A stretch of 64,000 nucleotides of DNA, from assembly GCA_041663025.1 (NCBI GenBank), contig JBAZRE010000001.1, forward strand, positions 71,585-135,584, written 5' to 3'. The notes below the pieces were generated by a model that saw only the letters and a program-made list of their open reading frames with translations, was not told the DNA's origin and searched no databases. This document shows, in pieces, positions 2,651-59,562 of the stretch. Position 1 is the stretch's first letter; the number at the start of each line of letters is the position of its first letter. A program made the translations under genes and the position numbers. This DNA comes from Minisyncoccota bacterium (GTDB lineage: Bacteria; Patescibacteriota; Minisyncoccia; Phycocordibacterales; Phycocordibacteraceae).

Positions 2651-4878
2651 AGATTTTTTGTTTTAAGGCGCAATGAATTAGAGACGACCGAAACACTCGA
2701 GAGCGCCATCGCGAGTCCTGCGAAAACTGGGTTCAAGAGTATCCCGAAGAATGGATACAGCAGGCCACTCGCCACCGGGATGCCGACGATATTATACGCG
2801 AACGCCCAGAATAGATTCTGCTTGATGCCGCGCATCGTGAATTTGGAGAGGCGAATTGCCTTCACCATCTTGCTGATGTCGCCATTCAAGAGTGTGATGC
2901 CTGCACTCTCTATTGCCACATCAGTGCCCGTTGCCATCGCGATGCCCACATCTGCCTGCGCGAGCGCCGGTGCATCATTGATACCATCGCCTGCCATAGC
3001 GACGATGTGACTTTGTGATTGGAGCTCTTTGATTTTGTTCAATTTGTCTTCTGGCATTACCTCAGCGACAATTTCATCTATTCCCGCCTGCTCCGCGATA
3101 TACTGTGCCGTTTGTGCATTATCGCCCGTGAGCATGACAACGCGGATGCCGAGCTTATGGAGATTCGCGACTGCCTCCTTTGCTTCTGGCTTTATCGCGT
3201 CAGCCACCATCGCGACAGCAAGTGTCTTCCCATTCGCAATGAGGATAACCGGTGTCTTCCCCTCAGAGGTGTCTTTATCTAGTGACTCAAAAGATGCTCC
3301 AAGTTCTCTCGCAAGTTTTTCGCTGCCAACGTGATATGTCACACCGCCTATTGCCCCGACAACTCCTTTACCTTTCAGCATTTCAAACCCCTCTACCGGC
3401 ATAAACGGAATATTCTTCTCATGAGCATACGAGACAATCGCGTGAGCTATTGGGTGCTCCGATTTGTTATCAAGTGACGCGAGAATTGAGGTGATATCAG
3501 CATCGCTCTTTTCAGAAAAATTCTTTAGTGACACCAACTCCGGTTTCCCTCTTGTTATCGTACCTGTTTTATCAACTACGACTGTGGTTACTTTGTGCAA
3601 TTTTTCAAGTGTGCTCGCATCCTTGATGAGAATACCTTCTTTTGCACCTTTTCCGACACCGACAATAATCGCGGTTGGCGTTGCGAGCCCTAGCGCGCAA
3701 GGGCATGCAATGACCAGCACTCCGACAAACGAGACGAGCCCGAGCGAGAGCGCCTGTGCGAATCCGAGATATGCCGCCCCAACAAAAATCCAGAGCCCAA
3801 GTGAGGCAAAGGCTATGACGAGCACAATCGGCACAAAGACGCTCGAGATCTTATCCGCAAGCGCCTGGATGGGTGCCTTGCTCCCTTGTGCATCTTCAAC
3901 CATTTGAATGATGTGCGCGAGCAGAGTCTCAGAGCCGACCTTCGTTGCCTTGAAGGTGAACGAACCGGTGGTGTTCAGTGTCCCTGCCACGACCTTATCG
4001 CCAACATTCTTCTCTACCGGCACCGGCTCACCAGAGATCATCGCTTCATCTATATAAGATGATCCCTCGGTGATAACGCCATCCACGGGGATTCTGCCGG
4101 CGGGCTTCACGATGATGAGCTCACCATGCACCACTTGCTCTATGGGGATCTCTATCTCGACACCATCGCGAATCACGAGCGCAGTCTTCGCCTGCAAATT
4201 AAGCAATTTTTCAATTGCATCGCCAGTCTTCAACTTCGCCCTCGCCTCAAGATATTTACCGAGCGAGATAAACGCGATGACGACGATCGCCACATCGAAG
4301 TAGGCGACCTCAACATTCACATACGCGCTCAATTGCTCGGCAAATACCGTGACGGCTGTGCTGTAGAGAAACGCCGCGGAGGTACCGATGCCTATGAGTG
4401 TGTCCATGTTCGCCTTGCCATAGCGCACAAATCGGTAGAAGCCGAGTAAATAGGGCTTGCCAACGAAGAAGAGCGCGTAGGCCGCCATAACTGCCAAGAG
4501 ATAACGGAGGAAACCGCTCACTGCCTCTGGAGCAGCAACCACGCGATTGAATTCTACGAGAATATCCCACGACATGATGAAGATGGCGATGACCGCCATC
4601 GGCATGATGGTGAAGATCTTCGTCTTCATTACAGCGAGCTCGGCAAGTTTCTCGCCCTTAGATTGATTCGTAACAAATGAATAGCCGAGTGGTTCTATAT
4701 TTTTAGAAAGTTGTTGTGAGTTCGTTTTTGTTTCATCAAAAACTACTTTTGCCGATTCATTTCCATAATTCACTTGCACCTCCTCAACTCCAACAACTTT
4801 CTTTAAAGACTTTTCAATGATGTGTGCACAGGAGGCACAATGCATGCCGCGAATCCGATAGGTTTGTGTGGTATTCAT
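2647..4878 (-). CDS. copA: Copper-translocating P1B-type ATPase
   Basis: The product carries an N-terminal HMA motif GMHCASCA, the CPC ion-transduction motif, the DKTGT phosphorylation site and GDGINDAP. Length is 743 aa. Confidence 0.95.
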   Translation of the reverse strand: MNTTQTYRIRGMHCASCAHIIEKSLKKVVGVEEVQVNYGNESAKVVFDETKTNSQQLSKNIEPLGYSFVTNQSKGEKLAELAVMKTKIFTIMPMAVIAIFIMSWDILVEFNRVVAAPEAVSGFLRYLLAVMAAYALFFVGKPYLLGFYRFVRYGKANMDTLIGIGTSAAFLYSTAVTVFAEQLSAYVNVEVAYFDVAIVVIAFISLGKYLEARAKLKTGDAIEKLLNLQAKTALVIRDGVEIEIPIEQVVHGELIIVKPAGRIPVDGVITEGSSYIDEAMISGEPVPVEKNVGDKVVAGTLNTTGSFTFKATKVGSETLLAHIIQMVEDAQGSKAPIQALADKISSVFVPIVLVIAFASLGLWIFVGAAYLGFAQALSLGLVSFVGVLVIACPCALGLATPTAIIVGVGKGAKEGILIKDASTLEKLHKVTTVVVDKTGTITRGKPELVSLKNFSEKSDADITSILASLDNKSEHPIAHAIVSYAHEKNIPFMPVEGFEMLKGKGVVGAIGGVTYHVGSEKLARELGASFESLDKDTSEGKTPVILIANGKTLAVAMVADAIKPEAKEAVANLHKLGIRVVMLTGDNAQTAQYIAEQAGIDEIVAEVMPEDKLNKIKELQSQSHIVAMAGDGINDAPALAQADVGIAMATGTDVAIESAGITLLNGDISKMVKAIRLSKFTMRGIKQNLFWAFAYNIVGIPVASGLLYPFFGILLNPVFAGLAMALSSVSVVSNSLRLKTKNL

Positions 4879-4884
4879 AAAAAA

Positions 4885-5148
4885 TTATTTACGCTTCAGG
4901 CGATATACCTTGAGTATCTCACCTATCGCGGTGCGCTCCTTCCCCTTCTTAATCTGGTGCACCACGCAGGTTCCAAGATGCTGCTCCATGAGAGCATCTT
5001 CAATACCACAGAGTGCCTGCTTCACCGCAGAGGTCTGCGTGATGACATCAATACAATAAGAATCCTTCTCGAGCATCTCCTGCAATCCACGTACCTGCCC
5101 CTCTACGATCTTCAATCGCCGAATCAATTTTGCTTTATTTTGTTTCAT
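4885..5148 (-). CDS. csoR: CsoR/RcnR-family copper-sensing repressor; start set at ATG 5148 rather than the upstream TTG
   Basis: Signature LIRRLKIVEGQVRGLQEML plus a Cys...His...Cys metal site. The ATG at 5148..5146 sits directly behind the -10 element and operator. The TTG-extended ORF would include the operator, so it was rejected. Confidence 0.85.
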   Translation of the reverse strand: MKQNKAKLIRRLKIVEGQVRGLQEMLEKDSYCIDVITQTSAVKQALCGIEDALMEQHLGTCVVHQIKKGKERTAIGEILKVYRLKRK

Positions 5149-6139: not shown

Positions 6140-7558
6140 TTATTGTAGCGCGGATCCGGCAGTGAAAAGCGAGTTTTCCGCCTGGTGCGGGGCGGTGATG
6201 TGAATGCCAACCGGGAGCTGCTTCCCTTCCCTTTCTACCGTGCCCATCGGGACAGAGATCGCCGGCATGCCAGTAAGATTTGCAGTCACGGTGAAGATAT
6301 CTTCAAGATACATTGAGAGCGGATCATTCTTATCGCCAAACTTGAATGCTGGAGATGGCGTTGTTGGGAAAGCGATGACATCGCATGATTCAAACGCTTT
6401 TTCGTATTCGCGACGCAACACAGCGCGTGCCGTGTCCGCTTTATAGTAATACGCATCAATATAACCAGAAGAGAGCACGAACGTGCCTAGCAAGATACGT
6501 CGACGCGTTTCTTCACCAAAGCCCTCGGTGCGCGAATTAATATAATCATCAAGGAGAGTCTCCCCACGCGCCGCATGCCCGTAGCGCATGCCATCGAGTC
6601 GTGCGAGATTTGTTGAGACTTCTGCAGGCATGATGACGTAGTATGCCGCGAGCGCAGTGGTGCTCATGGGCAGTTTGATCTCTATAATCTCATGCCCTGC
6701 TTGTGTAAGTTTATCGAGCACCGTATCGAATGCGGCGAGCACATCTTTATCAACGCCCTCGCCAAGTAGATGATAAGGAACTCCTATACGAAGGTGTTTG
6801 GAGATTTTATGCACACCATACAATCCATTTGGAATGGTTGTGGAGTCGAGTGCATCTTTACCGCTAATTGCATCATGGATAATGCGCGCATCAGTAATCG
6901 ATTTAGCCAAAGGACCGATTTGATCAAGCGAGGAGCCCATCGCAATAAGTCCATAGCGCGAGACTGCACCATACGTTGGTTTAAGACCAACAATACCGCA
7001 ATGAGCTGCCGGCTGACGTACTGAACCACCCGTATCACTGCCCAGAGCTGCAATACAAAGATGTGCGGCCACTGCAGCGGCAGAGCCTCCCGAAGAGCCG
7101 CCTGGCACACGCGAAATATCATGTGGATTTTTCGTTGGGCCGAAGGCCGAATGTTCGGTTGATGAACCCATCGCAAACTCGTCCATGTTGGTACGACCGA
7201 GAAATAATGCGCCGGCTTCTTTTAATTTTTTAATAACCGTTGCGTCATAGGTCGCGCGATAATTCTCAAGCATCTTAGACGCGGCGCTCGCAATCTTCCC
7301 TTCTATCAGAATGTTGTCTTTAATTGCGAGCGGAATGCCGCAAAGAAGTTGGGCTGATTCGCCTTCAGTATCAATGCGTTTTTGCGCTGATTCAATAGCC
7401 GCATCATCTGCTTCAAAAATTTCAAGATATGCGTGCAGTTCTGGATTCTTCTCGTGCGCGGCAGCCGCGCACGCATCCCAGAGCTCACGTACTGAGCATT
7501 CCCGCGCGCGGAGCGCGCGGGCAGCTTCTACGATCGTCATTTCATTTAATTTAGTCAT
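6140..7558 (-). CDS. gatA: Glu/Asp-tRNA amidotransferase subunit A (amidase signature family)
   Basis: Amidase signature GGSSGGSAAAVAA and a Ser-cisSer-Lys context. The start was set at MTKLNEMTIVEAARAL so that it overlaps the gatC stop by 8 nt. Confidence 0.9.
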   Translation of the reverse strand: MTKLNEMTIVEAARALRARECSVRELWDACAAAAHEKNPELHAYLEIFEADDAAIESAQKRIDTEGESAQLLCGIPLAIKDNILIEGKIASAASKMLENYRATYDATVIKKLKEAGALFLGRTNMDEFAMGSSTEHSAFGPTKNPHDISRVPGGSSGGSAAAVAAHLCIAALGSDTGGSVRQPAAHCGIVGLKPTYGAVSRYGLIAMGSSLDQIGPLAKSITDARIIHDAISGKDALDSTTIPNGLYGVHKISKHLRIGVPYHLLGEGVDKDVLAAFDTVLDKLTQAGHEIIEIKLPMSTTALAAYYVIMPAEVSTNLARLDGMRYGHAARGETLLDDYINSRTEGFGEETRRRILLGTFVLSSGYIDAYYYKADTARAVLRREYEKAFESCDVIAFPTTPSPAFKFGDKNDPLSMYLEDIFTVTANLTGMPAISVPMGTVEREGKQLPVGIHITAPHQAENSLFTAGSALQ

Positions 7559-7844
7559 GCTGGATGATCTGTTTGACCGAGAGTGCGTCGCCTTCGCGCG
7601 AGGGAAACTGCTCAGCAAGCTTCTCAGTGTAGGCATGTGCTTGGTGTGGCTCGCCATCCACACGCATCACATTGCGTAATACAGGAGGCAGGATGCAGGA
7701 TGCAGGATGCAGGTCTAGCGTCTCGAGTTGTCCGATATACGAGAGTATCGCGTCAAATTCGTTCGTGAATTTCTCGAGTTCTGTATCCTCCACTCGTATC
7801 CGCGCGAGCGCTGCGAGCTTTTTAACGTCTTCTGTCGTCGCCAT
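7551..7844 (-). CDS. gatC: Glu/Asp-tRNA amidotransferase subunit C
   Basis: 97 aa, beginning MATTEDVKKLAALARIRVEDTELEKFTNEFDAILSYIGQL, typical of GatC. It is translationally coupled to gatA. Confidence 0.85.
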   Translation of the reverse strand: MATTEDVKKLAALARIRVEDTELEKFTNEFDAILSYIGQLETLDLHPASCILPPVLRNVMRVDGEPHQAHAYTEKLAEQFPSREGDALSVKQIIQHD

Positions 7845-7857
7845 TCTATGCACTTTA

Positions 7858-9881: not shown

Positions 9882-10343
9882 TCAGTACACGGAGCTGATA
9901 CCGCGTGATACGAAGCGCGCTCCACCAGGAGTCTCCACCGTGCCACACGGAACATCATATCCTTGTGAGAACATGTAGGTCGTCCCTGAAACATTTTTAT
10001 AGATTGTTATGTCTGCGCAACGAGCACCGTCACCAAGTGACAACCGTGATTTATAAATGACGTTTGACGCATCAGTGCTACTGGCGATTCCAAACTGACT
10101 ACCACCACAGAATAATTCCATCCCTCCACCAGATTTAAAACGATCACTCACATAGTCTTCATAGAGTGCACACTCAATACCGGCATCGGCAGCATAAAAT
10201 GCCTGTTGCGATTCGATAGCCGCAGAGGCGAGCAGTTGCTGTTTATACCCAAGCGAGCTAATCGAGAGACCGAGTGCCAGCATAACTGACATAAAAATGA
10301 CGGAAATCAGAAGTGCAAACCCTCTGTTATGTTTGTTTTTCAT
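9882..10343 (-). CDS. Minor pseudopilin (prepilin-type N-terminus RG|FALLISV, no Glu5)
   Basis: A class III signal-like N-terminus followed by a hydrophobic helix. First gene of a run of four pseudopilin genes. Confidence 0.55.
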   Translation of the reverse strand: MKNKHNRGFALLISVIFMSVMLALGLSISSLGYKQQLLASAAIESQQAFYAADAGIECALYEDYVSDRFKSGGGMELFCGGSQFGIASSTDASNVIYKSRLSLGDGARCADITIYKNVSGTTYMFSQGYDVPCGTVETPGGARFVSRGISSVY

Positions 10344-10939
10344 TGCAATGGCTTGAGATTGTCGGTAATAGTCACTGAATGTGGTCTACTGTGATAACTC
10401 CACGATACTTCTGAAACAATCTTCTCATCGGTTGTAGACATGCCTGTTACTTGAATCGTGCGAATAAAAGGCGTTATTGTATCGATCTGTTGTTGCGTAT
10501 AAATATCCATATCTGAAAGATATAGTGGCTCAGTACACACATCACCAGTACAGCCGGTGAGCTCGCCAGCCAGTGGGTCAAGTGTACATATTTTCGGTGC
10601 TTGGCATAAGGCCACTGATGCTAAAAAGTCGTCCCATGCGCCAGAAGCGTCTCCGCCGTTATACGCAGCAAGATACGCATTGTCGCGTAATAAACGCGCA
10701 TATTCTATACCTTCTTGTGCGAGGTAAGAGGCAATTAGTTGATCGCGGGCGACTCCTGCGGCGACCATTGAACTATTCGCGGCAAAAAAGGATCCGGAGA
10801 TCGCGAGGGTGAGAATGGCTATAGCGACCATAGTTTCAACAAGGGTGAAGCCGCCGTAGTGAGCAGGAGGCAGGAGGCAGGAGGCAGGATTCGAATTCCT
10901 GCTTAGTGCTTGCTGCTTACTGCTTACTGAGTTGCTCAT
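10340..10939 (-). CDS. Pseudopilin with prepilin cleavage/methylation motif GG|FTLVE; unusually long 28 aa leader derived from a dispersed repeat
   Basis: Carries the GFTLVETMVAIAIL N-methylation domain. The first ~24 codons are encoded by the GCAGGAGG palindromic repeat at 10862..10930. Confidence 0.6.
   Translation of the reverse strand: MSNSVSSKQQALSRNSNPASCLLPPAHYGGFTLVETMVAIAILTLAISGSFFAANSSMVAAGVARDQLIASYLAQEGIEYARLLRDNAYLAAYNGGDASGAWDDFLASVALCQAPKICTLDPLAGELTGCTGDVCTEPLYLSDMDIYTQQQIDTITPFIRTIQVTGMSTTDEKIVSEVSWSYHSRPHSVTITDNLKPLQ
10862..10930. repeat. Imperfect palindromic dispersed repeat, copy A (agcaggaggcaggaggcaggaggcagga-ttcgaa-ttcctgcttagtgcttgctgcttactgcttactg), inside the 5' end of a pseudopilin ORF
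   Basis: A G-rich arm and a C/T-rich arm centred on GAATTC; a related tandem 7-mer (cctgcat x3) occurs inside gatC at 7672..7712. Confidence 0.5.
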
Positions 10940-11457
10940 AGGTCAATACCGCGCATGGCGGCTCCAGTTTCAACCGTAAAAGATTGTGGATCCCCGTGAC
11001 CAGAAGAAACTGTGCCGGAAACGGTGATGACCACATATGGTTGAGAACTGTCACCAGTCGACGTACCAGAGACATAAAAAGTCAGAGAAGAAACAGTAAC
11101 CGAGGGATCGGTGAGATTAGCAGAGACGCTACCTTGTGTTTGTGTAATGGAACCTCCAGAGAGCTCATAGGATACTACATTCCCTTTTGAGTTTCTTGTT
11201 GAGAAGCTGTCTCCCCCAGAACAATCGTCCCCAGTTATTGCAGGACAGTGATATTCTGTGCCAGTACGGATCGTGCGCGTCATCGTCTCAAGTGCGAATG
11301 AGAGGCTACCAATTCCGGTTGCAGTGCCTTGGGCCTTTCGTGTGAGATCTATCATTACGATATATGCACCTGAAGCAAGGGTCATCACAAGAGCGAAGAG
11401 TCCGACTGCGATAATAAGTTCAACGAGCGTGTATCCTCTTTTTATTTTCATAGGCAT
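10936..11457 (-). CDS. Pseudopilin (KRG|YTLVELIIAV)
   Basis: Canonical type IV prepilin N-terminus. Confidence 0.65.
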   Translation of the reverse strand: MPMKIKRGYTLVELIIAVGLFALVMTLASGAYIVMIDLTRKAQGTATGIGSLSFALETMTRTIRTGTEYHCPAITGDDCSGGDSFSTRNSKGNVVSYELSGGSITQTQGSVSANLTDPSVTVSSLTFYVSGTSTGDSSQPYVVITVSGTVSSGHGDPQSFTVETGAAMRGIDL

Positions 11458-12146
11458 GATGTGGCACTTGCGGTTATTCTCCCTGATTGGTCAACTGAGA
11501 CAAAATAGGTGCCGCCTTGTGGTGAAGCAATCGTCAAACATACTTTCGTTATCAGCTTCGAGTACGAACCGTTTGTACTGGTGAACACATCAGGGTTTGG
11601 GCGTGAGAACACGATGTCGAGCGAGGACAATCCCACACTGGAACATGACCAACTAACGTTAAAAACACAGAAGTCGCTCACTGTAATGCCATTCCCGAGC
11701 GTATACTCAACCACTTTTTGATCTTGAGCTGCTTGGTAGGCGCAGTCGCCAGGCTGGGCGTCAGGTGAAGTTATGAAACTCCTTGATACATGACAATTGT
11801 TTTCATCTGTAGTTGGAGATGGATAAATATCCGCAAAAAGGGTGAGTGAGCTAGGTGTCGCGGATTCGAAATGTACACCGTATCCAGTATTCGTGGATAT
11901 GATGACGCCCTCGTTTGTGCGCACACGACTGCCGAGACCATAGGTTTGTGCATTACGCAGAGTAAGCGCAATATCGTATGCGGTATTCTCGAGAATAATC
12001 GTCTTATTAAAAGAGCTCTGACCGGTCATGACGACTACCATAACGAACGTTATAATCGCCATTACGACGACGAGTTCTATAAGCATGAACCCGGCACCAG
12101 ATCTCAGTGGCTGGATAACGTCGCGATGAAGATGAAAGGATTCCAT
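11448..12146 (-). CDS. Pseudopilin (GAG|FMLIELVVVM)
   Basis: Prepilin-type N-terminal domain with Glu5. Confidence 0.6.
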   Translation of the reverse strand: MESFHLHRDVIQPLRSGAGFMLIELVVVMAIITFVMVVVMTGQSSFNKTIILENTAYDIALTLRNAQTYGLGSRVRTNEGVIISTNTGYGVHFESATPSSLTLFADIYPSPTTDENNCHVSRSFITSPDAQPGDCAYQAAQDQKVVEYTLGNGITVSDFCVFNVSWSCSSVGLSSLDIVFSRPNPDVFTSTNGSYSKLITKVCLTIASPQGGTYFVSVDQSGRITASATSCL

Positions 12147-12871
12147 TGGGTAAAGTATGCGAGAAGGAAGCCGGCGGCCAGATACGGCGCGAACGGCACC
12201 TCAACTCCCATTCTAGAGCCACTAGGCCTCCCCGCCAATATGATGATGCCGATAACTGCACCGATCCAGAATGAAAAGATGAACCCGGAGAAAGCGGCAG
12301 ATCCGGTGAGCAACGCTAGACCGAAGGAGAGAGGTGCGTCGGCGAGACCCATTGCACGACCGCGGGAAAAAACATGAATGAGTGCGAGCGAAAGTGCAAT
12401 AAGAAATGCTATGAAGAAAGAATTGAAAAAAGAGGTGTAAGATGGTGCGATAAGAAAACGAGTTATCACACTCGTGACAACAAAGAGAATAAGAAGTACC
12501 GAAGGCAATATCTGATGTGCAATGTCATAGAGGACGAGTGCGAGGAGTAGTGAGAGAGAAAGAAGCATACCAAACAACGCACTGGTGAGACCGAGCTTTA
12601 AATATGAGAGGAGAAAGAGGCCACCAAGCAGAAGTTCAGTAAGCGGCGCATACCATGAGATCCGCGCGCCACAGCAGCGCGCCCTCCCTCCCCAGCTCAC
12701 GAAAGAAATGATGGGCATAAGAGCAAGAGATGAGAGTGGCGCATCACACGCATCACAACGAGAACGTCCGATAACAAATCCCTGGCCCGTATAGAGACGC
12801 GCAACGAGCACACCGATAAAGCTCGCGATGATCGTGCCAAGTGCAAAAAATGCAATGGAAATGGGAAGCAT
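12104..12871 (-). CDS. pilD: Prepilin peptidase (A24 family)
   Basis: Polytopic membrane protein with a CxxC...CxxC zinc-binding tetrad (CDAC...CCGA) and a conserved Asp-containing loop. Confidence 0.8.
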   Translation of the reverse strand: MLPISIAFFALGTIIASFIGVLVARLYTGQGFVIGRSRCDACDAPLSSLALMPIISFVSWGGRARCCGARISWYAPLTELLLGGLFLLSYLKLGLTSALFGMLLSLSLLLALVLYDIAHQILPSVLLILFVVTSVITRFLIAPSYTSFFNSFFIAFLIALSLALIHVFSRGRAMGLADAPLSFGLALLTGSAAFSGFIFSFWIGAVIGIIILAGRPSGSRMGVEVPFAPYLAAGFLLAYFTQWNPFIFIATLSSH

Positions 12872-12947
12872 AGAAGCATCATAGCAGAAACCCGCTCGCC
12901 TATCGGCGGACGGGTTTCTGCTAATATAATATATTATGTCCTAGGAA

Positions 12948-13451
12948 CTATTCAGTTGAGGCACATGCTCCGCATACGACACCCGCAAGATCGTTTGCAT
13001 CAACGCCACAGTGTGCACCTGTACTGTCAATGCACCAATACGCTGAATCTGTTGATACTGCCACGTCTGCAGGCCGCGATACCGCTACCGCATAAGCTGT
13101 TTCTGACGAAATGCACTTTGCTGTGCCACCACCAGAGGCAACAAGGGCAGCAGCAATAGCATTTTCTATAGTCGTGTTGTAGAAGATGCTAGTGTCAGAA
13201 GTGTCGCCAGCTACCGGACAATCGGTCGAAGCTCCTGCTCCATCGTCGAGCGCCACGCCATACGATTCACTGTTGTCGGAGAGGAAGAGCGGCGCTTGGG
13301 TCGCGACGGTGCTCAGGTTTGATTTTATGGCTGCATCATTACCCTTGCCACGTGCTGAGTTAAGCGACGCGAGCACCACAGCCGAGAGGATGCCGATGAT
13401 TGCGATCACGACGAGCAATTCGATGAGAGTAAAACCGCGGTTATTCTTCAT
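12948..13451 (-). CDS. pilA: Type IV major pilin paralog 1
   Basis: N-terminus MKNNRGFTLIELLVVIAIIGILSAVVLASLN is the canonical PilA sequence. The C-terminus is Cys-containing and variable. Confidence 0.8.
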   Translation of the reverse strand: MKNNRGFTLIELLVVIAIIGILSAVVLASLNSARGKGNDAAIKSNLSTVATQAPLFLSDNSESYGVALDDGAGASTDCPVAGDTSDTSIFYNTTIENAIAAALVASGGGTAKCISSETAYAVAVSRPADVAVSTDSAYWCIDSTGAHCGVDANDLAGVVCGACASTE

Positions 13452-13474
13452 GCATTTAGGTTAATAAATAGTGA

Positions 13475-13942
13475 TTATGGACAAGTGAATGGAGCGGTAG
13501 GAAATGCGGTTGTACCTGTCAATACTGATTTAGCTACTCCACTCGAATCAACACACCACCATGACGCAGGTGTTCCGGTGAGCTTTACGGCGATGGCATA
13601 AGTCTGACCGGCAGCAACACATGCAAGATTACCTGCCGTTGAACCGCTCGCCGAATAAGCGGCTGTCAACGCGGCTTTAACGTTTGGATCAGCGAACATA
13701 GCAGAAGCGGTGCATCCAGCGAGTGTGTTGACAAAGCCTACCGTACCATAGACATTTGGACTCTGGGTGCCGTAGTATATCTCTGCTTGAGTCTGGACGG
13801 TATTGAGATCCGACATGATGGCCGCATTAGAACCCTTGCCGCGAGCTGTGTTAAGAGACGCGAGCACAACCGCCGAGAGGATGCCGATGATGGCAATCAC
13901 GACGAGGAGCTCGATGAGTGTGAAGCCGCGGTTATTCTTCAT
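13475..13942 (-). CDS. pilA: Type IV major pilin paralog 2
   Basis: First 30 aa identical to paralog 1; C-terminal domain diverged. Confidence 0.8.
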   Translation of the reverse strand: MKNNRGFTLIELLVVIAIIGILSAVVLASLNTARGKGSNAAIMSDLNTVQTQAEIYYGTQSPNVYGTVGFVNTLAGCTASAMFADPNVKAALTAAYSASGSTAGNLACVAAGQTYAIAVKLTGTPASWWCVDSSGVAKSVLTGTTAFPTAPFTCP

Positions 13943-13971
13943 AATTCCTAATTAATAAAGAATGAGACTCC

Positions 13972-14466
13972 CTACGATGCTGGGCAGGCGGTAGCTGTGC
14001 CGAGAGCTGTTGACCGCGAACCTGCAAAGCCTGTTGAGTCAACACACCAATATGATGCGGTACCAGTCAACGTTGAAGGAAGCTGAGAGGCGACAGCGTA
14101 GGCGACTCCTGCTGCAGCAACATTGCAAACAACTAGAGCAGAACCGTTAGCATTTTCTGCGCCAACGAGAGCATTTACAATTGATCCTGGGTCTACGAAT
14201 AGAGTAGTAGCAACTCCTGCGCCATTACAACCAGAGACTCCACCGGATGCCAAAGCCACATTGGCGCCATACTTATTTCCGTTATCTCCGTAGTAAATTT
14301 CTGCCTGTGTCTGAATGGTGCTCAAGTCTGATTGTACTGCAGCATCATTTCCTTTACTGCGAGCGGTGTTAAGCGATGCAAGCACGACTGCTGACAAGAT
14401 ACCGATGATTGCGATCACGACGAGTAATTCGATGAGGGTGAAACCTCGGGAACGATTTTTGTACAT
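13972..14466 (-). CDS. pilA: Type IV major pilin paralog 3
   Basis: Same conserved N-terminus (RGFTLIELLVVIAIIGILSAVVLASLN). Confidence 0.8.
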   Translation of the reverse strand: MYKNRSRGFTLIELLVVIAIIGILSAVVLASLNTARSKGNDAAVQSDLSTIQTQAEIYYGDNGNKYGANVALASGGVSGCNGAGVATTLFVDPGSIVNALVGAENANGSALVVCNVAAAGVAYAVASQLPSTLTGTASYWCVDSTGFAGSRSTALGTATACPAS

Positions 14467-50764: not shown

Positions 50765-50794
50765 ATTTGTAAATTGAAAATTGGGAATTAAAAA

Positions 50795-51178
50795 TTATGA
50801 AAACTGTATGGTGTCTCCGGCATTTAGATACACCGAAGCCTTGCGGCGTGCAGGACGCGTGCCGACGCCACGCTTCGTGCGCATCGCCTTCTTCTTGCCT
50901 GGTAGATTCACAATGCAGATTTTGCGAGGTTCAACCTTGTAAATTTCTTTTACTGCTGCAGCAATCTCAGCCTTGGTTGCACGCTTGGGCACCATGAATG
51001 TATAGATGCCCTTGTCGGTCACGATGAGTGCCTTCTCTGAGAACCATGGTGCACGAAGAATCTCATTGGCCATGCCATCAGCGAGCTTCGTCGTGCGTGC
51101 ATGATGCACTCGAGCAGTTTTTGCTGTTTTCGCTTTTTTTGTCTTCTTTTCTACCTTTTTGTTGCCAAATAGTGCCAT
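50795..51178 (-). CDS. rplW: 50S ribosomal protein L23 (about 35 aa Lys-rich N-terminal extension, or internal start at 51073)
   Basis: EILRAPWFSEKALIVTDKGIYTFMV. Confidence 0.88.
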   Translation of the reverse strand: MALFGNKKVEKKTKKAKTAKTARVHHARTTKLADGMANEILRAPWFSEKALIVTDKGIYTFMVPKRATKAEIAAAVKEIYKVEPRKICIVNLPGKKKAMRTKRGVGTRPARRKASVYLNAGDTIQFS

Positions 51179-52769: not shown

Positions 52770-53192
52770 TTAAACCATCTTCACATCAATCGTGACTCCC
52801 GAGGGGAGATTGAGGTTCGTGAGGGCCTCAACCACCTTTTGTGAGGGATTCATGATGTCGATAAGGCGCTTATGAATGCGCATTTCAAACTGTTCGCGCG
52901 CATCCTTGTGCACGAATGTTGAGCGATTGACCGTCCAACGCTTGATTTCGGTCGGGAGTGGAACTGGACCAACGACGATCGCATCGAAACGAGCAGCGGT
53001 GTCCATGATCTGCTTTACCGAGAGATCGAGAATCTTGTGTTCATAGGCGCGGACGCGAATGCGGAGTTTGTGCTCCACCAGAGCAGGTGCTGCGACTTTT
53101 TTCGTCACAACTCTCGCCCGCGGCGCCTTCGGCGCCGCGACTTTGGGGGCTGCGCGTTTTACTTTTGGTTTTGTGGCTGTCGCTGTAGGCAT
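52770..53192 (-). CDS. rpsJ: 30S ribosomal protein S10 (38 aa Lys/Ala/Pro-rich N-terminal extension, or a later start)
   Basis: HKLRIRVRAYEHKILD...VGPVPLPT...HKDAREQFEMRIHKRLIDI. Confidence 0.9.
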   Translation of the reverse strand: MPTATATKPKVKRAAPKVAAPKAPRARVVTKKVAAPALVEHKLRIRVRAYEHKILDLSVKQIMDTAARFDAIVVGPVPLPTEIKRWTVNRSTFVHKDAREQFEMRIHKRLIDIMNPSQKVVEALTNLNLPSGVTIDVKMV

Positions 53193-53198
53193 AATTGA

Positions 53199-53262
53199 AT
53201 AGTTAGCAGGAGGCAGTAGCTGGAGGCAGGAATTTCAGACTGCTTGGTGCTCCTGCTTACTG
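53199..53262. repeat. Imperfect palindromic dispersed repeat (GCAGGAGGCAG...CTGCTTACTGCTTAC), copy B, filling the tuf-rpsJ spacer
   Basis: Same architecture as the copy at 10862..10930. Confidence 0.5.
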
Positions 53263-53263
53263 C

Positions 53264-54463
53264 TTACGCAGTTATTTTAGTTACGACACCGGCACCAACG
53301 GTCTTGCCGCCTTCGCGAATAGCGAAGTGCTGTTGCTCTTCAAGAGCGACTGGCGCAACAAGCTTCACTTTGAAAGTGACTGTGTCACCAGGCATGACCA
53401 TCTCCTTACCCTCTGCGAGGGTCACTTCACCCGTCACGTCTGTCGTGCGGATATAGAACTGTGGCTTGTAGCCAGAAAAGAACGGCGTGTGACGGCCACC
53501 TTCATCCTTGCCCAAGATGTAGACCTCAGCGTCAAAGTCCGTGTGCGGAGTAACCGCTCCAGTCTTCGAGAGAACTTGTCCACGATGCACGTCTTCTTTC
53601 TTGGTACCGCGAAGGAGGATACCAGCATTGTCGCCTGCCTGACCTTCTTGGAGCTGCTTGTTGAACATTTCAATACCAGTGACGGTCGTCTTCATGGTCG
53701 GCTTGATGCCAACGATTTCAACCTCTTCACCAACTTTGATGACACCGCGCTCAATGCGGCCAGTGACCACAGTGCCCCTGCCTTCAATCGAGAAGATGTC
53801 TTCAATCGGCATGAGGAACGGTTTGGTAACTTCACGCTCTGGTTGATCGAAGTATGTGTCCATCGTGTCAACGAGCTCCTTAACCTTAACCGCCCACTCA
53901 TCACTGACGTCCTTAGCATCAAGTGCTTTGAGGCCAGAACCGCGGATAATCGGCGTATTTGCGCCATCGTAGCCCTGCTTTGTGAGAAGCTCGCGAATCT
54001 CCTCTTCGACGAGATCAATAAGATCTGCCTCGGCGACCATATCTACTTTGTTCAAGAAAACGATGAGTTTCTTGAGACCCACCTGCTTTGCAAGCAAAAT
54101 GTGCTCGCGCGTTTGCGGCATAACGCCGTCAGTCGCGGCGACTACGAGAACTGCACCGTCCATCTGGGCCGCACCCGTAATCATGTTCTTGATGTAGTCA
54201 GCGTGTCCTGGCGCGTCGATGTGCGCGTAGTGACGATTCGGTGTCTCGTACTCCGAGTGGTGGAGCGCAATGGTGATACCGCGTGCCTTCTCTTCTGGTG
54301 CACTGTCGATCTTATCAACGCCCTCAACACGCGCGCTGTAGCCCGATCCTGTCAACATTGAGAGGATGTGCAGGATGCTTGCGGTGAGGGTCGTCTTGCC
54401 GTGGTCAACGTGGCCAATGGTGCCGACGTTCATGTGCGGCTTGCTGCGATTAAATTCTGCCAT
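53264..54463 (-). CDS. tuf: Elongation factor Tu
   Basis: [14 protein letters not shown] and NKxD motifs; 399 aa. Confidence 0.97.
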
Positions 54464-57551: not shown

Positions 57552-57658
57552 AGCATTACCTCCCTCTCTCTTTATTGTACTGGCGTTATATACCAAAAGA
57601 CCCGATTTATCTCGATTCTTTTTACCACTCTCTATAAGAAAAGTCGAGTCGAGGTACC

Positions 57659-57685
57659 ATGTTCTAAGGTTAAACCTCAGAACAT
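57659..57685. repeat. REP-like 27 bp palindrome IR1 (ATGTTCTAAGG-TTAAA-CCTCAGAACAT)
   Basis: 11 bp arms with a 5 nt loop; the first of four copies bounding gene cassettes next to the RAYT transposase. Confidence 0.7.
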
Positions 57686-58006
57686 TTGCCCGTGCGATAT
57701 CGTATACTTAAACATGTGGTAACAAACACGATTACAAAACGACGAGATATATCCTGCTCGATATGCGGGAAATCCATGCACGTCGTCTTTTATAAAGACC
57801 GCAGGTATAGGGGCGGACATTACTTTGGGGAAGTACCTGTGTATTCTAAATCCGAGTTGGCGAAAATGCACAGAAGCGGAACTCACCAATCAAAAATTAC
57901 ACCGACGTGGACCATAGATGTGTGTAATTATGATCCAAAACCCCATGCACATTTTGAATATTGGGAGTGCCCGAACTGCTATTGGCATCCGAAATCTAAA
58001 TCTTGA
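57686..58006 (+). CDS. Hypothetical 106 aa zinc-ribbon protein (CSIC...CPNC) bounded by IR1 and IR2
   Basis: Four Cys in two CxxC pairs; the track start is TTG, and an internal ATG at about 57776 is possible. Confidence 0.4.
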   Translation: MPVRYRILKHVVTNTITKRRDISCSICGKSMHVVFYKDRRYRGGHYFGEVPVYSKSELAKMHRSGTHQSKITPTWTIDVCNYDPKPHAHFEYWECPNCYWHPKSKS

Positions 58007-58033
58007 GTGTTCTGAGGTTTAACCTTAGAACAT
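58007..58033. repeat. REP-like palindrome IR2 (inverted orientation: gTGTTCTGAGG-TTTAA-CCTTAGAACAT)
   Basis: Reverse complement of IR1 apart from one base. Confidence 0.7.
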
Positions 58034-58051
58034 CATGCTATGATTTAACCC

Positions 58052-58732
58052 ATGGCGAACAATATCTGTGTTACTGGCGAGTGGTATCACTGCTACAACC
58101 GCGGAACGGATAAAAGAACTGTGTTTGAAGATGTTGCTGATTATGAAAGGTTCCTCACCCTGCTATATGTCAGTAACGGCACAAATTCAATTCGAATTTC
58201 TGATCAACGAACAGGCAGCTTATCTATGTTCCTTGAAAATACATCTATCGACCGCACAGAACCGCTTGTAGAGATTGGTGCGTACGCTCTTATGCCGAAC
58301 CATCCGCATCTAATCTTAAAACAAGTGGCGGATGGGGGCATTGCCCGTTTTATGCAAAAAGTATTCACCGGTTATACCATGTATTTCAATCTTAAAAATA
58401 AACGCACTGGTGCACTTTTTGCGGGTACATATAAATCACGGCACATATCCAACGATCAATATCTGAAACAGGCTATTTCGTACGTTCTGTTGAACCCTGC
58501 AGAGTTGTTCGCAGACGACTGGAAAAAAGGAATGATAGATCTTTCCCAAATAAGAGAGCCTCTCCTTGCCTACCGCTTTTCAAGTCTTTCGGATTTCCTC
58601 GGATCAAAAAGACAAGAAAACAAGATCGTCACAGAGATGGGTGAGTTTTATGAGAAAAAACCAACCCTGGATGAAATGCTCTCGTATGCGATTTCCTACC
58701 ACCAAGAGAACCCCGCAGATACGGAGGTTTAA
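58052..58732 (+). CDS. REP-associated tyrosine transposase (RAYT / IS200-like Y1 HUH transposase, TnpA_REP)
   Basis: HUH motif MPNHPHLIL and catalytic Tyr in ISYVLLNPAE (Y-x3-NP). The stop codon TAA lies in the loop of IR3. Confidence 0.75.
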   Translation: MANNICVTGEWYHCYNRGTDKRTVFEDVADYERFLTLLYVSNGTNSIRISDQRTGSLSMFLENTSIDRTEPLVEIGAYALMPNHPHLILKQVADGGIARFMQKVFTGYTMYFNLKNKRTGALFAGTYKSRHISNDQYLKQAISYVLLNPAELFADDWKKGMIDLSQIREPLLAYRFSSLSDFLGSKRQENKIVTEMGEFYEKKPTLDEMLSYAISYHQENPADTEV

Positions 58733-58741
58733 CCTTAGAAC
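58715..58741. repeat. REP-like palindrome IR3 (left arm degenerate: agatacGGAGG-TTTAA-CCTTAGAACAT)
   Basis: Right arm and loop identical to IR2/IR4. Confidence 0.55.
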
Positions 58742-59509
58742 ATGTGCCGCTTTTTATTTGAAGCGGTGTTTGCTTGAAACGCATTCGTGAGCTCTTCATG
58801 CGAAGGTTGGCGATGTTCTTCTTTAGCCTTACGCATTACTCGACACACCGGACAGTCATCGTCTTCTTTCGAGGAACCTTCGTGTAACCATTCGCTTATA
58901 AGAGTCAAATTTTCTTCAATTTCTGAAACAGAAAGATCTGCTGGTTCAACGTTTCCGTGGATGACTTCATTGTATACCTCACGCGAATCTCGAATGTGGC
59001 GTGAACGTATGATCTCCCAATCTCGGACGGTTGGTTGCAACGCTAATACAGAGGAATTAAGAACTCTCCACTCACCTTTTATTGGAGCAATCCTGCATAT
59101 AAAAACATCTCCTGCGGCAACATCCAAAACACCCGCAGTATCAGCTATCTCATACTGTTTACTGTCATCAATGGCCATCAACATCATGCGGCCATGATTT
59201 GTTGCTTTCACTTCGAAATATCCAAAACGATTGTGTTCCAAAATTGACTTGAGACCCTCGAGGTCCTCGAGGGAAAAATTAAGTGGGTTTGTTCTATGGG
59301 TATAACTAAGCGGCGTTTCGCTTCCCTGATAATGAAAGTTGAAAAGAAACCAATCTAGAAAATATTCGTAAGCATCTTCGCTAATTGGGCCAGTGTCTCC
59401 CGAAAATTCATCCATAGCACGATGGACTTCATTGCCAAACATCCATACATGATCTGGGTGAAGAAAATAATTCAACAAACGTGAAAGTATTTCGACAAGC
59501 ATGCCCATA
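58735..59509 (-). CDS. Hypothetical 257 aa protein (cassette cargo), acidic with C-terminal CPVC
   Basis: Bounded by IR3 and IR4; start set at ATG (MGMLVEIL) with GGAGG 12 nt upstream. No recognised domain. Confidence 0.5.
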
Positions 59510-59535
59510 TTAAAACACAAACCTCCGATGCCAGG

Positions 59536-59562
59536 AGGTTCGGAGGTTTAACCTTAGAACAT
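59536..59562. repeat. REP-like palindrome IR4 (AGGTTCGGAGG-TTTAA-CCTTAGAACAT)
   Basis: 9/11 match in the left arm; the right arm is perfect. Confidence 0.65.

Follow-up and report, generated by a model that had tools for sequence, protein, structure and literature searches.

We describe a short repeat in a 64,000-nucleotide (nt) stretch of DNA from a Minisyncoccota bacterium (GTDB lineage Bacteria; Patescibacteriota; Minisyncoccia; Phycocordibacterales; Phycocordibacteraceae; NCBI GenBank assembly GCA_041663025.1, contig JBAZRE010000001.1, positions 71,585 to 135,584 of the forward strand), hereafter the window, in which positions are counted from the first letter. Protein names in the source records put the organism in Candidatus Paceibacterota, close to Kaiserbacteria. 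The element is a real, dispersed imperfect palindrome of unusual heptamer architecture, with about four 7-nt units in each arm. It occurs as a unit at nonorthologous sites, related genomes have empty sites, and the element is found at cistron boundaries, following the tuf stop codon in one case and lying a few codons past the start of a minor prepilin gene in another. [quoted passage not shown] On this reading it would be a passenger that is tolerated at junctions between cistrons and in the disposable prepilin leader.

A dispersed palindrome in a pilin leader and an operon junction

Both of the look-alike hairpins that the original prediction had placed at 10862-10930 and 53199-53262 are present, with slightly different limits in our analysis (Table 1). 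The two copies have 63 of 81 aligned columns in common (78% identity), and both are imperfect palindromes whose + strand reads (GCAGGAG)n in one arm and (CTGCTTN)n in the other, the full + strand sequence of copy 1 being AGTGAGCAGGAGGCAGGAGGCAGGAGGCAGGA-TTCGAAT-TCCTGCTTAGTGCTTGCTGCTTACTGCTTACT. We found 9 matches to GCAGGAGGCAG with at most 1 mismatch, against 1.17 expected and with none of 100 shuffles reaching 9, and 6 matches to CTGCTTACTGCTTAC with at most 3 mismatches, against 1.14 expected. A covariance model (R1) run on the window found only these two copies, with the next, unrelated match at 14.2 bits; the scores of the copies themselves are partly circular, as the model was trained on 14 sequences that include both. 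Identical sequences are present in two assemblies made independently from this organism (L001, Logan SRR6484324; L002, ENA ERZ27249449), so the copies are not assembly artifacts. The apex of copy 1 (10888-10900, GGA-TTCGAAT-TCC) presumably resembles a tRNA T-arm (GGTTCGAATCC), although TTCGAA is also simply the center of the palindrome; similar loops occur in two other copies (L011 and L200b).

These two copies are not the only ones. Further copies occur at nonorthologous loci of other Paceibacteria and, together with the empty sites in relatives, they uphold the original reading of a dispersed imperfect-palindrome repeat family. When one genome per species was scanned with a pattern, three copies came from the Paceibacterota metagenome-assembled genome (MAG) STC_91 and one from a MAG labeled Saccharibacteria, and a metagenome scan gave additional copies (L-numbers denote related loci fetched for comparison, ∼1.9 Mb in all). 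Fourteen copies align well, and the covariance model built from the alignment adds L078b, L117b, and L186. Subfamily I, composed of regular heptamers, occupies the same minor prepilin gene as copy 1 (pilin3) in the window, L103, L128, and L200b and the adjacent gene pilin4 in L071, L011, L136, L200a, and L201. Its G-rich arm comprises 3.7 to 3.9 units in all eight subfamily I copies, only L136 being imperfect (a 1-nt deletion). Subfamily II (copy 2, L226, L062, and L117a) has one 6-nt unit at a mirrored position in each arm, which holds the helix in register; its L062 member lies inside a 2,136-amino-acid (aa) open reading frame (ORF), a site unrelated to tuf-rpsJ, and is open in one frame there. 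In L078, from STC_91, frr is flanked on both sides by copies (6835-6925 and 7475-7563), and the genes there have the G-rich strand of these copies as their sense strand. Nonorthologous copies also have nonrepetitive parts in common, namely a loop, GGATTCGAAT(T)CC, and the termini AGTAG(T/C)GAGC...CTG(A/G)GTT.

The operon that contains copy 1 is one for a type IV pilus and is ordered prepilin peptidase (12104-12871), three minor prepilins (11448-12146, 10936-11457, and pilin3), and a PilX_N protein (9882-10343), followed by ligA, gatC, and gatA. In agreement with the original prediction of a copy within a pseudopilin leader, it spans approximately codons 3 to 28 of pilin3. The pilin3 ATG overlaps the stop codon of the upstream pilin gene (ATGA), and because no alternative start codon precedes the cleavage motif G/FTLVE, this copy is translated in frame, extending the leader. 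The predicted leader, MSNSVSSKQQALSRNSNPASCLLPPAHYGG/FTLVETMVAIA, is 30 aa long, with ∼23 residues contributed by the element, compared to 6 to 19 aa in neighboring prepilins. On the mRNA, the 5′ arm of copy 1 becomes (CCTGCCT)n and encodes PASCLLPP, and the 3′ arm becomes GTAAGCA GTAAGCA GCAAGCA CTAAGCA, where the third unit has CAA in place of what would be an in-frame TAA. All nine copies in pilin leaders are in frame and in the same orientation, and seven of these were found by DNA pattern, without regard to frame. We hypothesize that the pilin insertion is tolerated because prepilin peptidase would cleave the leader off.

The suspicion that this leader is unusually long is borne out by 118 pilin3 homologs with a recognizable cleavage site, of which 70 have leaders of 3 to 13 aa (such as MKG or MNMKG), 15 have leaders of 14 to 23 aa, and 33 have leaders of at least 25 aa. 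The element is present in ∼10 of the long leaders (...SSKQQAASRN.NPASCLLPPARYSG). Leaders of pilin4 (FALLISVIFMSV, PilX_N) are typically 9 aa long, and pilin4 of the window has a plain 8-aa leader. One 90%-identity cluster of pilin3 combines a near-constant mature protein with three unrelated leaders, one of them this element; the occurrence of unrelated leaders on near-identical mature pilins indicates that leaders are replaced far more quickly than point substitutions accumulate.

Copy 2 fills the 71-nt spacer between tuf and rpsJ, as had been proposed, and starts immediately past the tuf TAA. We compared this junction in four relatives with 87 to 94% identical S10 proteins. One (L226) carries the same element in a spacer that is also 71 nt long, whereas the spacer is only 6 nt in L228 (GCGTAA-ACAAAC-ATG) and consists of unrelated sequence of 25 nt in L229 and 32 nt in L231. 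Presence and absence at orthologous sites are thus seen in the tuf-rpsJ spacers (6 to 32 nt versus 71 nt), the bimodal leader lengths, and the swapped leaders. The tuf-rpsJ copy probably acts as an intercistronic mRNA hairpin, and its conservation there is far above that of synonymous sites. Copy 2 and its L226 counterpart are identical at 65 of 71 positions (92%), compared to 64% of third codon positions in tuf and 60% in rpsJ (binomial P = 1.6e-8). Copies in pilin3 are 80 to 85% identical, with 24 to 42% at nearby third codon positions, and copies in pilin4 are ∼84% identical, with 48% at nearby third codon positions. Identity above the synonymous level means that the copies are young, derive from a conserved source, or are under nucleotide-level constraint; youth is favored for the pilin copies because leaders turn over rapidly, and constraint is favored for copy 2 because the junctions at tuf-rpsJ are identical.

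Three further features of the window are of note. The S10 protein encoded next to copy 2 begins with a Lys/Ala/Pro-rich extension of ∼40 residues (MPTATATKPKVKRAAPKVAAPKAPRARVVTKKVAAP..., encoded at 53070-53192, minus strand); S10 of relatives is similar in length, mostly 121 to 166 aa, which is consistent with a common extension. A perfect hairpin, AGCAGAAACCCG...CGGGTTTCTGCT, lies between the major pilin and prepilin peptidase genes (12874-12929) and scores only 14 bits with the family model; it is not a family member. A 158-nt segment present in three tandem copies (13294-14460, at ∼500-nt spacing) corresponds to the conserved 5′ parts of three major-pilin paralogs.

TABLE 1 Features of the window discussed in the text (bits, score with covariance model R1; TRF, Tandem Repeats Finder)
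Feature	Position	Strand	Basis or detail
Copy 1, subfamily I	10855-10933	+ (G-rich, strongly folding strand)	94.6 bits; aligned with 13 other copies
Copy 1, 5′ arm, (GCAGGAG)x3.9	10863-10889	+	TRF, 100% matches
Copy 1, 3′ arm, (CTGCTTA)x4.4, imperfect	10899-10929	+	TRF, 83% matches
Copy 2, subfamily II	53198-53273	+	83.1 bits; alignment; spacer comparison with relatives
Copy 2, arms matching those of copy 1	53204-53229 and 53240-53267		TRF
pilin3, minor prepilin, 199 aa	10340-10939	-	ORF list; Pfam N_methyl at residues 29-50
tuf (EF-Tu)	53264-54463	-	On the mRNA strand, stop TAA belongs to the first unit (TAAGCAG) of copy 2
rpsJ (S10)	52770-53192	-	Start 71 nt downstream of tuf stop
(CAGGATG)x4.6 in gatC (7551-7853, minus strand)	7682-7713	+	TRF
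RAYT-like ORF	58052-58732	+	HxH motif NHPHLIL; Pfam Y1_Tnp, E = 0.002, below cutoff
RAYT-associated palindromes ATGTTCTAAGGTTAAACCTCAGAACAT, 26-32 nt	57654-57685, 58002-58033, 58712-58743, 59531-59562

Mode of spread, strand asymmetry, and alternative explanations

The mode of spread and any RNA-level role are matters on which we can only infer. The element may spread in trans through some enzyme, or recombination may carry it from one prepilin gene to another through their conserved 5′ ends. Several observations weigh against a small mobile repeat. We found no target-site duplication where copy 1, copy 2, or the copies in pilin4 meet the flanking DNA, and when the 2,762 ORFs around 219 listed hairpins were clustered, no transposase or other gene family recurred. 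The sole Y1-transposase-like ORF of the window, which resembles a REP-associated tyrosine transposase (RAYT), is flanked by a different palindrome (Table 1). The original prediction had set the repeat apart from the REP/RAYT palindromes, and this arrangement bears it out; lying between fusA and rpsG, the RAYT-like ORF with its palindromes resembles an inserted REP/RAYT unit. Only two copies are present in 64 kb, and copy number per genome may be low. The sharing of the element by pilin3 and pilin4 could reflect gene conversion between paralogous 5′ ends instead of transposition, and conservation at orthologous sites is unlike that of a decaying selfish insertion and points to function or very recent arrival. 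Finally, heptamer hairpins of unrelated sequence but the same architecture leave room for a generating process over a single mobile lineage. In viral contigs, one of our patterns had 0 matches and the other had 3 identical nonhairpin matches, giving no sign of phage carriage. The idea that the repeat is a DNA uptake sequence was rejected, as the density of copies is far too low.

The claim that G:U pairing makes the hairpin more stable on the + strand was confirmed. Copy 1 folds at -45.5 (z = -7.6) or -47.1 kcal/mol on the + strand versus -25.6 or about -26 kcal/mol on the minus strand, and copy 2 shows a weaker asymmetry (-30.7 versus -25.7 kcal/mol). In 12 of 12 folded copies the G-rich strand is the more stable (-29 to -57 versus -18 to -32 kcal/mol). 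Each heptamer on that strand forms six pairs (A-U, G.U, G-C, C-G, A-U, and G-C) and one G-N mismatch; overall, 96.6% of alignment cells pair, and G:U is fixed at three stem positions. No stem pair in the copy alignment varies on both sides, such that covariation neither supports nor refutes the structure. The same strand bias appears in two other leader insertion families, family E and the pilin2 insert of L237 (-57 kcal/mol antisense versus -33 kcal/mol sense).

The strand asymmetry does not show that a + strand RNA has a function. All genes neighboring the two copies are on the minus strand, so the better-folding + strand, whose orientation relative to genes had been raised as a check, is antisense to every one of them, and this together with the lack of covariation leaves a + strand function unshown. 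Coding copies always carry the weakly folding strand as mRNA, at no fewer than three independent sites (pilin3, pilin4, and L062) and in two prepilin genes of L004. Intergenic copies occur in both orientations, with copy 2 and L226 one way and L078a and L078b the opposite way. We suggest that the strong orientation may be counterselected within ORFs, where the mRNA would then contain a hairpin of -45 kcal/mol and repeated AGGAGG motifs. The G:U asymmetry may itself be a by-product, in that transitions giving A.C on the mRNA strand leave G.U in the complement, and for this reason the asymmetry need not mean an antisense RNA function.

A different possibility, which we regard as unlikely though worth weighing, is that the element is a selected cis-acting RNA or DNA hairpin that sets tuf versus S10-operon expression or stability and couples or throttles minor-pilin translation, with dispersal secondary. 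This would account for conservation far above synonymous sites at orthologous positions and for locations that are all cistron boundaries in operons (tuf/rpsJ, the two flanks of frr in L078, and the pilin genes that overlap at ATGA), and the high fraction of paired alignment cells is in keeping with it. However, the element is present in only ∼8% of pilin3 and ∼1 to 3% of pilin4 orthologs and is missing at tuf-rpsJ in three of the four relatives examined, and near-identical pilins have leaders swapped for unrelated sequences. The strand transcribed here folds only weakly, there are no compensatory changes among the copies, and terminator and promoter scans returned nothing that fits the element on the minus (mRNA) strand, with no G+C-rich hairpin followed by a U tract.

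We consider it improbable that each copy originated locally, through polymerase slippage giving heptamer arrays and fold-back template switching giving the inverted arm, so that similarity among copies is convergence. In its favor, heptanucleotide repeats are reported to outnumber other longer simple repeats in many prokaryotes (reviewed in PMC4679880), other gene starts carry unrelated arrays of some four heptamers, and the periodic mismatches fit arms that were homogenized separately. The gatC array, too, seems to have grown in place. The original prediction had called a tandem 7-mer in this gene related to the repeat; the array is real and encodes HPASCILPP, but it is not a copy of the element, being a single arm and not a net insertion. 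It has no inverted partner and no significant fold (z ∼0), and GatC is not longer than in relatives, the heptamers replacing, in the alignment, a variable 12-residue linker of equal length. The array adjoins the ancestral CCTCCTGTA and apparently grew in place beside an ancestral CCTCCTG, which shows that CCTGC-type heptamer arrays in this genome also grow in place; it is a related kind of heptamer array, separate from the element. What local origin leaves unexplained is that nonorthologous copies have their nonrepetitive termini and loop in common and that the paired 6-nt units diagnostic of subfamily II turn up again at unrelated loci of different genomes. In the present alignment, copies already seem to group by subfamily across genomes and loci and not by locus.

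The gatC unit, CAGGATG, is also what we take to be the CsrB repeat. The idea of a CsrA sponge was dropped, as no CsrA homolog was found in the window or any fetched locus and CAGGATG is antisense to gatC.

Phase variation, in which the minor pilin would be switched on and off as the stretch encoding its leader gains or loses 7-nt units, is very improbable. It draws on the tandem 7-nt units in the leader-coding part of surface-filament genes, on in-frame variants three units apart in the (AATTTTC)n family (MISNFQKKG versus MRNNFQFSIFNFQKNG), and on the importance of type IV pili in CPR episymbiosis (bioRxiv 10.1101/2024.11.25.624915). Against it stand the nine of nine leader copies in frame, most of them found without regard to frame, the near-constant number of units in the G-rich arm of subfamily I over all genomes sampled, the identity of independent assemblies of the same strain, and the intergenic position of copy 2, where frame is irrelevant. 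A small RNA gene or antisense regulator expressed from the + strand and stabilized by G:U pairs has just as little to recommend it, for although the strand asymmetry, the fixed G:U positions, and a short terminator-like site on the + strand (53259-53272) are compatible with such a gene, there is no promoter-like site near either copy, the G-rich strand in L078 is sense to the flanking genes so that orientation relative to transcription is not fixed, transitions weakening the mRNA hairpin are a simpler cause of the asymmetry, no covariation accompanies it, and Rfam gives only generic hairpins far below threshold. At the gathering threshold, only tRNA passes in the window and 18 related loci, and permissive Rfam scans returned only generic microRNA-precursor hairpins (8 to 19 bits versus thresholds of 47 to 110 bits).

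Leader insertions and heptamer hairpins in other genomes

The leaders of pilin3 and pilin4 in Paceibacteria host the same set of insertion families, comprising A (this element), B, C [(AATTTTC)n], D [(AAACTAC)n], E [(CTGGAAA)n], F, and H [(AAATCCG)n], and the families that we checked at the DNA level likewise consist of heptamers, as arrays or as hairpins. Family E consists of (CTGGAAA)x4 and a C-rich arm, and family H of (AAATCCG)x3 and (TTCGTGC)x3. Family B (L236), read directly from the sequence, forms a double hairpin with an 8-bp direct repeat, GGTTYACT, on either side, unlike the element described here. Long-leader insertions other than this element include those at L236 3001-3110, L237 2049-2140 and 2639-2735, and L238 2416-2515.

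Heptamer arrays with some four units are a recurrent feature of gene starts in these genomes. In the L23-L2 spacer of the window, the rplB start is directly preceded by a degenerate (TTGAAAA)x4.3 array (50767-50796), and the same junction in L228 (8468-8499) holds an unrelated (CCTAAAG)x4.6 array. L117 contains a heptamer hairpin made of unrelated units, with (ATTGCCG)x3.9 facing (AATCGGC)x3.4 (3344-3419).

Hairpins of the form (GCAGNNN)n...(NNNCTGC)n, which are complementary mosaics of different heptamers, are widespread (L003 to L102 and L108 to L225). These GCAG/CTGC-phased hairpins occur in Acidobacteriota, Chloroflexota, Abditibacteriota, Bacteroidota, NC10, Planctomycetota (Gemmataceae), Cyanobacteria (Nostoc), and CPR. 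A genome scan gave at least 100 loci versus ∼17 expected by our own uniform-composition estimate, with three or more phased units per arm at 34 or more of them, and no Rfam family covers these cross-phylum hairpins. We counted the GCAG..CTGC order 65 times and the opposite order 0 times, which is not evidence because the search patterns themselves select for the former. Prepilin leaders hold 7 of the 219 pattern matches listed versus 4 of 2,190 random strand-positions. In one Blastocatellia (Acidobacteriota) MAG (L004), two neighboring prepilin genes both contain a GCAG-phased heptamer hairpin that is translated as part of the leader (4262-4333 and 5032-5100), one of these leaders being MKSEGSQQKAASRRQKTAPRFLPAARCPLHSQTNG/FSLIELV. 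We did not use a cross-phylum test of open frames in coding versus intergenic copies, since spurious open frames in high-GC DNA confound it. It is a tentative and rather unlikely extension of our interpretation that the window copies are the CPR branch of an uncatalogued cross-phylum class with GCAG/CTGC-phased heptamer arms, which would have spread by a structure-directed mechanism, repeatedly colonized the leader-coding 5′ ends of prepilin genes, and come under constraint for tuning pilus-subunit and operon-junction expression.

CPR (Patescibacteria) genomes are usually called streamlined and repeat-poor, and the window shows otherwise, with several tiny hairpin families and at least six different insertion families in the leaders of two adjacent minor-pilin genes. 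The elements are translated within the cleavable leader of proteins of the type IV pilus, an organelle thought to mediate host attachment, and the prepilin leader presents itself as a natural safe harbor for insertions. Because leaders differ within 90%-identity clusters, leader elements could serve as a marker of strain-level turnover. For annotation, long prepilin leaders in these genomes are insertions and not miscalled starts.

Comparison with known repeat families

Our literature searches, which covered the repeat strings, heptamer hairpins, and CPR prepilin leaders, returned no description of such elements. We compared the family with described repeats. Like REPs and REPINs mobilized with RAYTs, the element is a short imperfect palindrome of conserved sequence, dispersed at gene boundaries, noncoding, and without target-site duplication. 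REPs have an unpaired GTAG (or CGTC) tag at one end; in the element, GTAG stands ahead of the stem at the 5′ foot (GTAGTGAGC) in copy 1, L071, L128, and L136, and the foot is ATAG in copy 2 and L103 and GTTG, AGAG, or GTGG in other copies. At 72 to 85 bp with 19 to 30 paired positions, it is two to three times longer than a REP (20 to 40 bp), its arms are tandem heptamers with a periodic mismatch, and copy 1 is translated. REPs are extragenic and of high copy number, although REPs within genes have been reported (PMC3733652), whereas this element has 2 copies per 64 kb, and copy 1 and most relatives lie inside ORFs; no cognate RAYT flanked by the palindrome of the element is present in the window.

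Rickettsia RPEs, which offer a precedent, are small palindromic repeats inserted in frame into protein genes and also found in intergenic regions (PMC10969869). The element resembles them in keeping the ORF open where it is inserted (the nine leader copies and L062) and in being intergenic elsewhere. RPEs occur in Rickettsia, differ in length (∼100 to 150 bp), and lack a heptamer make-up; on account of this make-up and of the taxon, sequence homology between the element and the RPE families is unlikely. Coding insertions of the present element fall almost only in the cleaved leader and not in the mature protein, with L062 as the exception. Bacterial MITEs (Correia/NEMIS, ERIC, RUP, and BOX) are similar in their presence and absence at orthologous sites, in forming a cotranscribed stem-loop, and in potentially affecting mRNA stability, but the element lacks the target-site duplication, and no parent insertion sequence was seen in the ∼1.9 Mb of fetched loci.

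The contingency loci of Neisseria opa genes, in which CTCTT repeats in the signal-peptide region act as a switch, are alike in that a gene for a surface structure contains, where it encodes the leader, tandem units whose length is not divisible by three; no variation in unit number and no out-of-frame allele was seen for the element. Heptanucleotide repeats at gene starts, such as the cyanobacterial heptamer repeats and the TAACTGA repeats of Beggiatoaceae (PMC4679880), have in common with it a 7-nt unit, few units at or before starts that include those of ribosomal-protein operons, and a scattered phylogeny. These are direct repeats with no inverted partner, whereas the element consists of two different heptamer arrays that face each other and are dispersed as a whole.

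The element thus falls outside REPs on size and cognate RAYT and outside MITEs on target-site duplication and, within the fetched loci, on parent insertion sequence, and its heptamer architecture, fixed strand asymmetry, and above-synonymous conservation are not explained by known REPs or MITEs. A dedicated mobilizing enzyme or an RNA-level role, if one exists, would be new with respect to these systems.

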